Assembly (NCBI GenBank): GCA_021325355.1
Contig: JAJPHI010000016.1
Span: 103,733-167,732 of the forward strand
Source: Pseudomonadota bacterium
GTDB lineage: Bacteria > Desulfobacterota > Binatia > Binatales > Binataceae
Direction: 5' to 3'
Length of the DNA stretch: 64,000 bases
Below, in pieces: positions 1,637 to 26,697 of the stretch; the stretch's first letter is position 1, and the number at the start of each line of letters is the position of its first letter. The notes below the pieces were generated by a model that saw only the letters and a program-made list of their open reading frames with translations, did not search any database and had not been told where the DNA came from. A program made the translations under genes and the position numbers.

Positions 1637-3040
1637 ATGCATGCCTCGTCGTTCTTCACGCGTCCGCTGCTGGTCGGTCTGGGCGTACTGGCGCTCCTGA
1701 TGTCAGCTCGAGGAGTCTCGAGCGCTCAGGATCAGACCTATGTTCCGCCGGACTACAAACCTGCGCCTGAGATGCAGCAATGGTTGACGGACACCGAGCA
1801 TCAGAACCCGGTGCCGGTCGGAACCGTGATCACTACTGCGAACTGGCAGCAATATAAGGAAGAGATGCCCTACGGTCTGCAGACCCTGTTTTCGGGCAAG
1901 TATTTCTGGAAGATCCCGGCCGATGCTCAGATTCAGATCGGCGAAACGCAGATTCTGAGCCAGCCCAAACCCTATCTGGAAGCCGGCGAAAAGTACGGCA
2001 GCCAGACGTCAATCGGCGTTACCTCAAGCGGCCATCGCTATATCAAAAACTATCAAGGCGGGACGCCGTTTCCTGATGCGTTCAATCCCGGAATCAAAGA
2101 CCCTCAGAAAGGCTACAAGATTCTCGCCGACGATTATCTCTCGTGGGTGCCCGATCTCTACGCGCAACCGTTTGACCATCCGGGGGTCAGTTGCACACAG
2201 GATCGCTTCGGCAACATGAACTGCACGACGCTGGTCTGGATCTACACCCAGGTCGGTTGGAACACCGATCCCGGCGTGCCGCAGAACTATCCGCAGGCAG
2301 GCGACTCATGGTTCACGCAGTGGTTCACCGTCGTGACTCCGGAACAGTCGAAGTACGAGACCAATTTGACGATATTTTACAAAAATCCTGAGCGTGATCA
2401 GGACGACTACGTATTTATTCCATCGCTGCGACGTTCGCTGCGTCTATCGGTGACGGCGCGATGCGCTCCGGCGGCCGGCAGCGACCTCGTCCTTGACGAC
2501 TATTTTACGCCAGGCTTCAACGGTGGTTTGGCGATCTTTGACGCGACCTACCTGGGACGGCGGAAGCTGATGGTGCTCGAGGGCGACTTTACCCATCAGA
2601 CCGGTCACTTCCCCGATGATTGGGACATGCCGCTCGGCTTCCCCAAGCCTTCGTGGGGCAAGTGGCAGTTGCGCGACTACGACATTATCGACGTTCGCCG
2701 GATTCCGGCCGAAGCCAAAGGCTACTGTTACGGCAGCCGCGTGATGTACGTCGATTCCGTCTACCACTACGCGGCGTGGCTCGACATCTTCGATCAGAAC
2801 CTCAAGCACTGGAAAGTGCAGTTCTGGGCCTCACGCGCCGAGGATGTTCCCCCGTTGGGTCACGTGAATACCAATTCCGTGACACTCGGGGTATGGGACG
2901 TGCAGAACGATCACGCGACCTATCTGTCAACCTATGATGCGGCGGGGGTCGGCCCTTACTTCAACACGCAGGCGCCGCCCGAATATCACAATTTTACCAA
3001 GTACTGCTCGGCGAGCGGCTTGAATCAGATGATGCAATAG
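1637..3040 (+). CDS. secreted protein of unknown function (cleavable signal peptide; possibly DUF1329-like)
   Basis: The 467-aa ORF has a clear signal peptide (MHASSFFTRPLLVGLGVLALLMSARGVSSAQ) and aromatic-rich, globular-looking composition. I cannot place the family confidently. Confidence 0.6.
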   Translation: MHASSFFTRPLLVGLGVLALLMSARGVSSAQDQTYVPPDYKPAPEMQQWLTDTEHQNPVPVGTVITTANWQQYKEEMPYGLQTLFSGKYFWKIPADAQIQIGETQILSQPKPYLEAGEKYGSQTSIGVTSSGHRYIKNYQGGTPFPDAFNPGIKDPQKGYKILADDYLSWVPDLYAQPFDHPGVSCTQDRFGNMNCTTLVWIYTQVGWNTDPGVPQNYPQAGDSWFTQWFTVVTPEQSKYETNLTIFYKNPERDQDDYVFIPSLRRSLRLSVTARCAPAAGSDLVLDDYFTPGFNGGLAIFDATYLGRRKLMVLEGDFTHQTGHFPDDWDMPLGFPKPSWGKWQLRDYDIIDVRRIPAEAKGYCYGSRVMYVDSVYHYAAWLDIFDQNLKHWKVQFWASRAEDVPPLGHVNTNSVTLGVWDVQNDHATYLSTYDAAGVGPYFNTQAPPEYHNFTKYCSASGLNQMMQ

Positions 3041-23368: not shown

Positions 23369-24589
23369 TTAGTCTGCCTTCCAAGCCACCGATTTGAGAT
23401 CGATCCCTTCCTTCGCCATTTCGTATAGCGGCGACATATCGCGCAGACGGGTCACTTCGCGGGCAATGCGATCGGTGACGAAGTCGACCTCCTCGGCGGT
23501 GTTGAAGCGTCCGAGGCCAAAGCGGATCGAGCTATGCGCCAACTCGTCGCTGACGCCGAGCGCGCGAATCACGTAAGAGGGTTCGAGCGTTGCCGAAGTG
23601 CAGGCCGAGCCGGAGCTCACGGCCACGTCGCTGATACCCATCAGTAGCGACTCACCTTCGACGTAGGCGAAGCTCAGATTGAGATTACCGGGCAGCCGTT
23701 CGGTCGGATGACCGTTGAGCGAGACCTCGTCGAGGCGTTCGAAGATGCCGGCCTGCAAGCGGTTGCGGAGGTCGGTCAGGCGGCGCGCCTCCTCGACCAT
23801 TTCGCCCTGCGCGACTTCGCAGGCCTTGCCGAAGCCGACAATACCCGTGACATTCAGGGTGCCGGAGCGCATCCCGCGCTCGTGGCCGCCCCCGTCCATC
23901 TGTGCGGTGAGGCGCACGCGGGGTCCCTTCGAGCGTACATAGAGCGCGCCGATCCCCTTGGGGCCGTAGAGCTTATGCGCGCTGAGTGAGGCGAGGTCGA
24001 TGCCGTCGCGCTCGACGTCGAGCGGCACTTTGCCGGCGGCCTGGACAGCGTCGCAGTGGAAGATGACGCCCTTCTCCTTCGCGATGCGGCCGATCTCGCG
24101 CACGGGATGGATCGTGCCGATCTCGTTGTTGGCGTACATGATCGTGATAAGCACGGTCTTGTCGGTGATCGCCTTGCGCACGTCGTCAGGATCGACCATC
24201 CCGTACTTGTCGACCGGCAGATAGGTTACAACCGCCTTGCCGGCCCGCTCGAGCGCGCGGCAACTGTCGAGCACCGCCTTATGCTCGGTCACGCAGGTGA
24301 TGACGTGGTTGCCCTTATCCTTGTAGAACTCGACAATGCCCTTAATCGAAAGATTGTCGGACTCGGTCGCTCCGCTGGTAAAGATGATCTCCTTAGGTTT
24401 GGCATTGATCAGCGCCGCAATCTGCTGTCGCGCACGATCGACCGCCTCTTCCGCTTCCCAGCCGAAACTGTGATTGCGGCTAGCCGCATTGCCGAATTTC
24501 TCGGTGAAATATGGCAGCATCGCCTCGAGCACCCGCGGATCCGTGGGCGTGGTGGCGTGATTGTCCATGTAGATCGGCAGCTTCAGCAT
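23369..24589 (-). CDS. iscS: cysteine desulfurase IscS
   Basis: PLP lysine motif [18 protein letters not shown] active-site Cys loop. 406 aa. Confidence 0.95.
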
Positions 24590-24632: not shown

Positions 24633-24647
24633 AATAGTGGACCTATT
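24633..24647. promoter_or_regulatory. inverted repeat AATAG-N5-CTATT about 40 bp upstream of the iscS start (possible Rrf2-type operator)
   Basis: aatagtggacctatt lies next to a TATATT/TAATAT -10-like element on the iscS strand. Confidence 0.2.
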
Positions 24648-24756
24648 GGGTATATTATGGCTGGAGCAGTCGCAATGTCAAAGCGGACCCGAAAAAATTT
24701 CCCGATGGCGCGGCAGGATAACGGGTCGGCATCGCTGCGGCAACCTTACCGCGCGG

Positions 24757-25080
24757 TCAGCGACTCGTAAACGGTCCCGGGCACTGCTCGTCGAAGCGAA
24801 TTATCAGAAGCTTACGGTCAGTCCGGATAGCTTTCAGCGCGGCTTCGCGGGTCTCTTCAAAGTGCTGCTGAAGCCAGGGTGCCAGCCGCTCCGCGAGCTG
24901 CGCGGCCGGCGCCGGCTCGAGGTCGCGCGTGACGATGCATTGCAGGGAGACCCGCTCGATGCCGTCTGCGCGCTCGAGCGTGAGCGTCAGGGTGGGTTCC
25001 GCGGGCGAACCCTCGACGGCGACTAGCTGCAGTTGATAGCGGCCTCGGCTGGTATGGAGCTCGATGGCACTCAGGGCTGC
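24757..25080 (-). other. coding-like 107-codon ORF lacking any in-frame ATG/GTG/TTG, in frame with secF (TGA, 8 codons, TAG, then the ORF)
   Basis: Hand translation gives AALSAIELHTSRGRYQLQLVAVEGSPAEPTLTLTLERADGIERVSLQCIVTRDLEPAPAAQLAERLAPWLQQHFEETREAALKAIRTDRKLLIIRFDEQCPGPFTSR*. GC3 is about 75 %, matching genuine genes. The overlapping plus-strand ORF is Arg-rich and antisense-like. Confidence 0.3.
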
Positions 25081-25107
25081 CTACCGCAAATCGGGCCAAG
25101 CCGCGCC

Positions 25108-26046
25108 TCAGGCGGCGCGAGCGCTTGCGCGTCGCGGGCCATGCCCGCGCTCCCAGAAGAGCACCACCGGGCCGGCGATATAGATCGAGGAATAGGTCCC
25201 GGTGATGATGCCGACGAACAGGGTAAAAGCGGCCGGGCGCAGAATCGGACCACCAAGCGCGAGCAGTGCTGCCAGCACGGCGAGCACCGTTCCCGAGGTC
25301 AGTACGGTTCGCGAGAGGGTTTCGTTGATCGCGCGATTCATGATGGAGGCGAGCGGTTCGCGGCGCCGTTTCGCCGAATCCTCGCGAATGCGATCAGAAA
25401 CAATAATCGTGTCATGGACCGAGTAGCCGATCACCGTGAGCAGCGCGGCGAGCGTGGTCAGATCGAACTCCAGGTGGGACAGGATCAAGGCCAGGCTCAC
25501 CACCAGCACGTCGTGAACCAAGGCGATGACAGCGCCGGCGCCGAAACTCCAACTGACGCCGCGGAACTGAAAGGCGATGTAGATACCCATCAGGATGGTC
25601 GCAAGGCTGACCGCGAGAAAGCCCCGCCGGCGCAGATCGCTGCCCACCTTGGCGCCGACCGTTTCGACGCGCAGCACTTCGACCCGGTTGGAATCGCCGT
25701 AACTCTGGTCGATGGCGTTCTTGATACTGCTGCCGATACTGCCGATGTTGCGGATTTGTTCAAAGCCGATGAGGTACTGATTCTGGTCGCGGGCGCCGAA
25801 GTCCTGCACCGTCACGTCGCCGAGATTGAGCGGCGCCAGAGCCTGGCGAATCCGTCCCGCATTGGTCGGATGATCGAACTTGATCTGCACCACGCTGCCG
25901 CCCTTGAAATCGACACCGTAGTTGAAACCGATGGTGAAGAGGCAGACCAGCGCGGCCAGATTGATCAGAGTCGAGAGCGTGACGAAGAAATAACGCTTGC
26001 TGACGAAATCAATATTGATGTCGGGACGAATCAGTTGGAGGGACAT
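25108..26046 (-). CDS. secF: protein translocase subunit SecF
   Basis: 312 aa, six TM helices, conserved SecF periplasmic loop and C-terminal TM bundle. Confidence 0.9.
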   Translation of the reverse strand: MSLQLIRPDINIDFVSKRYFFVTLSTLINLAALVCLFTIGFNYGVDFKGGSVVQIKFDHPTNAGRIRQALAPLNLGDVTVQDFGARDQNQYLIGFEQIRNIGSIGSSIKNAIDQSYGDSNRVEVLRVETVGAKVGSDLRRRGFLAVSLATILMGIYIAFQFRGVSWSFGAGAVIALVHDVLVVSLALILSHLEFDLTTLAALLTVIGYSVHDTIIVSDRIREDSAKRRREPLASIMNRAINETLSRTVLTSGTVLAVLAALLALGGPILRPAAFTLFVGIITGTYSSIYIAGPVVLFWERGHGPRRASARAA

Positions 26047-26163: not shown

Positions 26164-26508
26164 TCAGGCCGCGGCCGGCTTGCTCCGCGCACACTTGTCG
26201 CAGAGATTGTTGACGTTCGCCGGATCCTCCTGCAGGCCCTCATCGAGCGAGTGGCAGACCTTCATGCATTTCGCGCAGATGAAGTAGATGCCCTCGATGG
26301 TCTTGTTGATGCGTTCGCGGTTCAGGATGCGCCCTTTGAGTTTCTCGAGGCGGATGCCCAACAGCTCGTGATACTGGCGTTTGATCTTTTTGCGCCCGGC
26401 TTCATCCTTGGGTAAGTCGCTGTCATCGACCGGTTCTTCGGCGGCGCTGTTCAAACCCGCGATCAGATCGCGTTTCGGGGAGGATTTGCTCTTGCGCGTG
26501 CGCACCAT
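26164..26508 (-). CDS. TraR/DksA family C4-type zinc-finger protein
   Basis: Coiled-coil region followed by C-x2-C-x17-C-x2-C (CAKCMKVCHSLDEGLQEDPANVNNLCDKC). Confidence 0.65.
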   Translation of the reverse strand: MVRTRKSKSSPKRDLIAGLNSAAEEPVDDSDLPKDEAGRKKIKRQYHELLGIRLEKLKGRILNRERINKTIEGIYFICAKCMKVCHSLDEGLQEDPANVNNLCDKCARSKPAAA

Positions 26509-26523: not shown

Positions 26524-26697
26524 CTAGCGGGTGCGGCCGATATAGCCGCAGTTCTTTTCGCATACGACGTAGAACCCGCGCCGGCCGTAACCGGCAAACA
26601 TCGTCACCTTGCCCTCCGCACCGCAGCTTGGACACATATGCTTGCGCTGAATCTGCCCGCCGCCCTTTTCTGCCGTCTTTGCTTTCTTCTCAGCCAT
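26524..26697 (-). CDS. 57-aa zinc-ribbon protein (below the track length cutoff)
   Basis: Hand translation gives MAEKKAKTAEKGGGQIQRKHMCPSCGAEGKVTMFAGYGRRGFYVVCEKNCGYIGRTR*, with a CPSC ... CEKNC ribbon. Confidence 0.4.
   Translation of the reverse strand: MAEKKAKTAEKGGGQIQRKHMCPSCGAEGKVTMFAGYGRRGFYVVCEKNCGYIGRTR

Follow-up and report, generated by a model that had tools for sequence, protein, structure and literature searches.

The window analysed here is a stretch of 64,000 nt (GCA_021325355.1, contig JAJPHI010000016.1, positions 103,733-167,732 of the forward strand) from a member of the Binataceae, with a G+C content of 62%. On its minus strand, the gap between secF and iscS holds an open reading frame (ORF) in which no canonical start codon occurs. 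The features of this locus are as follows:

25108..26046, minus strand: secF, 312 aa, ATG start, identified by Pfam Sec_GG and SecD_SecF_C.
25080..25085, minus strand: GGTAGG, a weak Shine-Dalgarno (SD)-like element that includes the in-frame TAG, 5 nt before the CTG.
25081..25083, minus strand: in-frame TAG, two codons upstream of the CTG, which closes the frame, as read from the sequence.
24757..25080, minus strand: full stop-to-stop open frame, 107 sense codons plus TGA.
24757..25074, minus strand: proposed coding sequence from CTG to TGA, 105 codons, orthologue of a Binataceae-specific small protein.
25072..25074, minus strand: CTG, codon 3 of the open frame, proposed near-cognate initiation codon, which occupies the orthologous start position.
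25063..25065, minus strand: ATC, codon 6, alternative near-cognate start, located by codon scan.
24637..25026, plus strand: antisense shadow ORF of 129 aa with a GTG start, Arg-rich, a mirror frame and not a gene.
24654..24681, minus strand: sigma-70-like promoter TTGACA-16-CATAAT (11/12 matches), between the ORF stop and iscS.
23369..24589, minus strand: iscS, the downstream neighbour, starting 168 nt past the ORF stop.

Directly upstream of secF lie two Cys-rich (CxxC...CxxC) proteins of 114 aa (26164..26508, minus strand) and 57 aa (26524..26697, minus strand). Both are without a Pfam match, and their order is kept in loci L002, L006 and L118. The secD gene is not adjacent to secF in the window.

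A codon scan of 24757..25080 finds neither ATG nor GTG nor TTG in frame. The end of secF and the ORF share one frame, which runs from RAA-TGA (25110..25108) through the eight codons GAAWPDLR to the TAG and on into the ORF, and the distance from the secF TGA to the CTG is 33 nt. On these points, a re-reading of the DNA agrees with the sequence-only reading that this analysis followed up, which had described a 107-codon ORF without a canonical start, with CTG as codon 3 and ATC as codon 6, placed in the secF frame behind TGA, eight codons and TAG. Openness alone is weak evidence for a gene at this G+C content, as 17 of the 306 stop-to-stop frames of at least 90 codons in the window lack a canonical start, most of them being shadow frames of real genes. 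The ORF is judged to be real because of its coding-like composition in a gene-free gap and, decisively, because of its homologues. Its GC1/GC2/GC3 values are 0.73/0.49/0.75, next to a GC3 of 0.77-0.81 for secF, iscS, iscU and iscA. A check for genome-wide relaxed start usage revealed no other start-less, coding-like, intergenic frame in the window. The competing plus-strand ORF, earlier described as antisense-like, indeed mirrors the conserved minus-strand frame, its codon positions 1 and 3 being exchanged; homology and structure prediction all fall on the minus-strand frame and none on the plus-strand ORF. The predicted product of the coding sequence has a computed mass of 11.8 kDa, a pI of 5.7 and no transmembrane segment. 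Its peptides comprise (M)SAIELHTSR at the N-terminus given by the CTG and, internally, ADGIER, VSLQCIVTR and LAPWLQQHFEETR.

A phmmer search against 5.8 billion proteins retrieved five homologues of 106-112 aa, which are 43-55% identical to the ORF product and cover 91-94% of it (E = 4e-27 to 3e-15). A profile search extended the family to at least 909 clusters, all of 100-117 aa, all named 'hypothetical protein' and without a Pfam domain. When a profile was run without filters against 1.84 billion representatives, 59 clusters (50% identity) came up, nearly all short (47-142 aa). None of these 59 clusters points to a known family, and their low number indicates that the family is narrow. A scan of species-representative genomes yielded 71 loci, with titles that are almost all Candidatus Binataceae, Ca. 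Binatus or 'uncultured delta proteobacterium' MAGs. Another 34 loci came from a scan of metagenomes, which turned up no closer relative with more than 58% identity. These matches to the 107-aa sequence, along with its coding-like composition, bear out the earlier claim that the frame is genuinely coding. The worry attached to that claim, that relatives might not conserve the frame, falls away, as orthologues occur at the 71 + 34 loci. Judged from these sequence matches, the small protein downstream of secF is a Binataceae-restricted family of uncultured soil bacteria.

The window copy shares a number of characteristics with the Binataceae proteins that NCBI, UniRef and JGI name 'hypothetical protein' (P0001, P0003 and P0029). 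They are 43-58% identical over the full length, have the motifs T.RG.Y, LERADGIE[RK], W...FE.TREAALK.IR and FD....GPF in common, and agree in length, predicted fold and position after secF and before iscS. The window copy differs from them in having a CTG at the start position, in lacking a following GNAT acetyltransferase and in never having been called as a gene. Against a family HMM built without it, the window copy scores 116.5 bits, the third lowest of 87 (median 160), and other divergent lineages score near this value. It carries the conserved residue in all 19 invariant columns of a 56-sequence alignment. The AF2 model is confident (pLDDT 92.8, pTM 0.82), and its best structural match is DUF1488 (PDB 2gpi), a small alpha+beta protein, with 64 residues aligned. 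At the sequence level, the best Pfam E-value is 0.17 and a Pfam scan of all 56 members gave nothing consistent; NCBIfam, a PDB sequence profile search and Rfam each returned no match.

The genomic position of the family is stable. In nearly all of about 100 loci, secF is the immediate upstream neighbour of the small gene, with both on one strand, and in relatives the distance to the next gene of the order, iscS, is 170-2800 nt. In the window, a terminator-like site was found neither in the spacer that separates secF from the ORF nor behind the ORF. The strong, near-consensus sigma-70-like promoter precedes the iscS ATG by about 65 nt, and shuffled sequences average 0.2 such sites. This promoter (24681..24654) would mark the 3' limit of a unit comprising secF and the ORF. 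Because no terminator-like site separates the two and the promoter follows the ORF stop ahead of iscS, the ORF most likely belongs to the secF transcript.

In 56 of the 76 loci with enough flank, the small gene and iscS are separated by a gene for a GNAT acetyltransferase (e.g., 161 aa at L004:1043-1528), often only 2-20 nt past the small gene. It matches generic acetyltransferase models only, far below the cut-offs. The window and 20 further loci have no GNAT gene there; the 20 loci nevertheless keep a canonical start of the small gene. No GNAT homologue occurs anywhere in the 64-kb window. A TA-like pair of the small gene and the GNAT was considered and dropped, since the small gene occurs without the GNAT here and in 20 relatives, the locus shows stable synteny instead of mobility, and the GNAT matches only generic models. 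Two peculiarities of individual relatives concern the upstream side. In L120, the secF gene (L120:4-1221, 89% identical) is called as 405 aa with an N-terminal stretch matching Pfam Beta-lactamase, which may be a mis-called start, a fusion or a contig-end artefact. In L084 and L087, the small-gene frame is open for 288 codons upstream of its ATG, through secF in another frame, which is probably a chance shadow frame in G+C-rich DNA.

To compare start positions, the orthologues were anchored on the invariant LERADGIE[RK] motif. A canonical start is located 32 codons before this motif in almost every orthologue, and a TTG at 28-29 codons serves in one large subgroup, in which the start falls just past the secF stop. 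In the window, codon 32 before LERADGIER is the CTG at 25074..25072. A gapless codon alignment pairs it with the ATG of the closest homologue, L001/P0001, and with the TTG of L074; the window reads CTG AGT GCC ATC GAG CTC CAT ACC AGC CGA GGC and L001/P0001 reads ATG CCG TCG CCC GAG CTT CGC ACC AAC CGC GGG. The window stands alone among about 90 unique orthologues in having a non-canonical codon at the start, and the CTG is conserved in no sampled clade. Among the orthologues with a readable N-terminus, L041 is the lone exception to a canonical start. Its N-terminus (L041:650-950, MAG MFD00964.bin.2.3) is frameshifted and has no usable start, due to either a real pseudogene or an assembly indel error.

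A search guided by secF led to two lineages at 89% secF identity, L120 and L118. L120 carries an ATG-starting orthologue 22 nt past secF and out of the secF frame. In L118, an MFS transporter gene comes next after secF (L118:3440-3600) and the small gene is gone from this position. The ATG-starting L001 (L001:5001-5324) is located on another contig of the same sample as L118 (Logan SRR30413545), a co-occurrence that does not establish that both belong to one organism. L001 is preceded by a gap of 800 nt, and a TATATAA box stands 5 nt ahead of its ATG, giving it a leaderless look. As the two lineages closest by secF are both linked to ATG-starting copies (L120 and L001), the simplest history would be one substitution from ATG to CTG on the branch to the window species. 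Neither the metagenome search nor the secF-guided search turned up an intermediate relative carrying the CTG. With a CTG at this position, gene finders see no start and leave the gap unannotated, and none of the six possible N-terminal versions of the product is present in about 15 billion proteins.

The starts of the family are weak in general. Among 86 unique orthologues, TTG is used in 63% (n = 54), GTG in 21% (n = 18) and ATG in 16% (n = 14), so 84% are non-ATG. The flanking genes at these loci differ, with an ATG start in 72 of 73 secF and in 64 of 64 iscS genes. For comparison, annotated starts in model bacteria are ATG for 81.8%, GTG for 13.8% and TTG for 4.35% (10.1101/063800), and some model genomes have CTG among their annotated starts (bioRxiv 10.1101/063800). 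The family also does without an SD sequence, the median duplex energy of -1.7 to -2.3 kcal/mol being that of background. In the window, GGTAGG pairs with the anti-SD at -5.7 kcal/mol, compared to a median of -3.2 for the putative genes of the window and of -2.6 for background, which places it in the top 14% of background. The predicted RNA structure at the start is no more stable than that of shuffled sequences (z = +0.33), and there is thus no sign of an unfolding-type coupling element. For this gene, weak initiation thus seems to be the rule, and the CTG one step further down.

The distance between the secF stop and the start varies widely. It is 3-7 nt in 23 of 81 orthologues (all TTG), with further groups at 11-25 nt (n = 10), 26-50 nt (n = 25) and 51-123 nt (n = 22). 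About 23 loci (among them L017, L018, L020, L024 and L033, around positions 2994-3003) share a conserved GCC GCC TGA TCT TCG TTG junction, in which the TTG follows the secF stop by 3-7 nt, usually in the same frame and without an SD, a textbook layout for termination-reinitiation. For this group, termination-reinitiation is plausible. The 33 nt of the window exceed the range by which such pairs are recognized, from an overlap of stop and start up to about 10 nt (PMC10666635). In native E. coli pairs, termination-reinitiation loses 40-80% of its efficiency at +14 nt and has almost vanished at +38 nt (PMC10666635), and in a phage coat-lysis pair coupling is kept at +23 and +35 nt (PMC12548453). 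Re-initiation after secF is possible at the distance found in the window, but would be expected to be inefficient (PMC10666635). The family resembles translationally coupled pairs (PMC6728339, PMC10666635, PMC12548453) in having a weak SD-less start behind a well-translated gene, but the window differs from them in its gap of 33 nt, at which native E. coli reinitiation is largely lost.

Taken at the level of sequence, the locus holds a genuine conserved gene whose start site is occupied by a near-cognate codon; the gene is either weakly translated or very recently silenced. We consider it probable, though well short of certain, that the frame is an intact Binataceae gene for a soluble protein of about 105 aa, which lies in the secF transcription unit and is translated weakly from the CUG. 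We take as established that the frame is intact and its sequence real, that it has homologues in a shared gene order and that the CTG stands at the start position; expression is what we infer from this. The gene would be transcribed together with secF, and the initiator tRNA would pair with the CUG at low efficiency. The weak GGUAGG element 5 nt upstream may aid initiation at the CUG, and ribosomes that end secF 33 nt upstream may add a little. Since the family is apparently tuned to weak initiation (84% non-ATG, no SD), a further step down to CUG would plausibly be tolerated. The ATC three codons past the CTG could act as a second start. Initiation at a rare codon had been among the earlier proposals, and one part of it holds: the CTG sits where the orthologues have their ATG, GTG or TTG, and it has the sole SD-like element at usable spacing. 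The other part, that the CUG is used, would be a step beyond its position. A known counterpart is the AUU of infC, likewise the sole plausible start, one base off AUG, of a conserved ORF, from which a low yield is expected. The infC AUU, however, is conserved and serves IF3 autoregulation, whereas the CTG of the window occurs in one species and the data hold no regulatory logic for it.

The alternative that survives best is a recent loss of the start, in which the change from ATG to CTG silenced the gene and the frame is a fossil; we regard this as unlikely, though it deserves serious weight. The window is the sole orthologue with a non-canonical start codon, and initiation at CUG, AUA, AUC and AUU in E. 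coli reaches 0.1-3% of that at AUG (bioRxiv 10.1101/063800). The neighbouring GNAT is missing in this lineage, the gene has moved in L118 and is disrupted at its N-terminus in L041, so that loss or rearrangement does occur, and the window copy has a low HMM score. On the other hand, all 107 codons are open, free of stops and frameshifts. At 31 columns that are at least 85% conserved among 41 non-redundant sequences, the window departs at two and thus keeps 29 of 31 residues, next to three departures in L120 and two in L001. In Tajima relative-rate tests with eight outgroups, the window copy has no excess of unique changes over L120 and L001, its sisters with an ATG start (e.g., 15 vs 17 and 9 vs 14; all p > 0.15), and hence no acceleration on the long terminal branch. 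The CTG allele is also the only one present in samples of several studies. Moreover, a family that already works with weak SD-less starts is less likely to lose its function by a further drop in initiation. The dN/dS of the window copy against its relatives (0.10-0.39) lies in the range found among ATG-starting relatives, but dS is saturated (>1) against every relative, so that this ratio is uninformative for the branch since the change from ATG to CTG. All contigs of the window species are identical in this region and provide neither polymorphism nor a within-species selection signal. Neither the frame disruption nor the relaxed constraint typical of a pseudogene was observed, in tests whose power is limited by the saturated dS and zero polymorphism. 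These tests argue against long-standing decay; given the lack of polymorphism and of an intermediate relative, they speak to such decay and not to recent loss.

Weak translation from the CUG also has to be weighed against a functional gene that initiates at the ATC (25065..25063), or at both near-cognate codons, instead of at the CTG. AUC belongs to the efficiency class of CUG in E. coli, and the product would have a natural length, as the large TTG subgroup (-28/-29) begins 3-4 codons further in. Family N-termini extend 4 to 11 residues ahead of the conserved RG, a range into which an ATC-started product fits. No near relative, however, starts at the position aligned to the ATC, and their starts align with the CTG instead. 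With 14 nt between it and the ATC, GGTAGG is too distant to act as its SD, and no SD-like element is present at usable spacing from the ATC. We therefore consider initiation at the ATC improbable.

The sequence-only reading had also offered a sequencing or assembly error, with the TAG as a transposed ATG; an indel that joins the frame to the TTG at 25099 would be another form of it. The absence of a start codon is the one argument for such an error. The exact SecF protein of the window is encoded on 21 contigs, and seven loci were fetched (NCBI GCA_037025045.1, ENA ERZ27279670, JGI 3300027965 and 3300027706, and Logan SRR24677561, SRR24677566 and SRR5579883). Over whatever part they include of the interval between the end of secF and the beginning of iscS, they match the window at 100%, and all 551 nt of this interval are covered by four loci (L006, L007, L009 and L010). 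As these identical loci come from different sources and samples, sequencing error is ruled out, unless every one of the assemblies goes back to a single set of reads; the orthologous start moreover aligns to the CTG and not to the TAG, and an error in whatever form has hardly any probability left. None of the pipelines behind these loci calls a gene in the secF-iscS gap. L007 diverges from the window only within iscS, where its last 600 nt (window 23709..24300) are about 20% different, which probably makes this contig a chimera formed in assembly with sequence of a related strain.

A C-terminal extension of SecF by readthrough of both TGA and TAG, likewise suggested before, or a non-coding chance frame can be set aside as highly improbable: the ORF does share the secF frame and start-less frames are common in the window (17/306), but two stops intervene, the orthologues lie in frame 0, 1 or 2 relative to secF (L120 being out of frame across a 22-nt gap), the eight codons between the stops are unconserved, and hundreds of homologues and a confident predicted fold argue against chance.

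Both kinds of element involved, protein families that are lineage-specific and uncharacterised and genes that begin at rare codons, are already known, and no new mechanism is claimed. A CTG-start gene of this type opens no major question; its practical value lies in annotation and its biological value at the level of the family. For annotation, the lesson is that a CTG at the start hides a conserved gene from every pipeline behind about 15 billion proteins. If the CTG copy is expressed, it would provide a natural data point on the drift of start-codon strength in a working bacterial gene. A wider picture, to which we give slightly less than an even chance, would combine a functional and fixed CUG start, a family selected for weak SD-less initiation and a fold unmatched in the PDB, in a protein that acts with SecF or the Isc cluster. 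Across about 90 orthologues, starts without an SD and of low strength are kept beside neighbours that nearly always use ATG, which suggests that low or secF-dependent expression may be the selected state of this Binataceae family.
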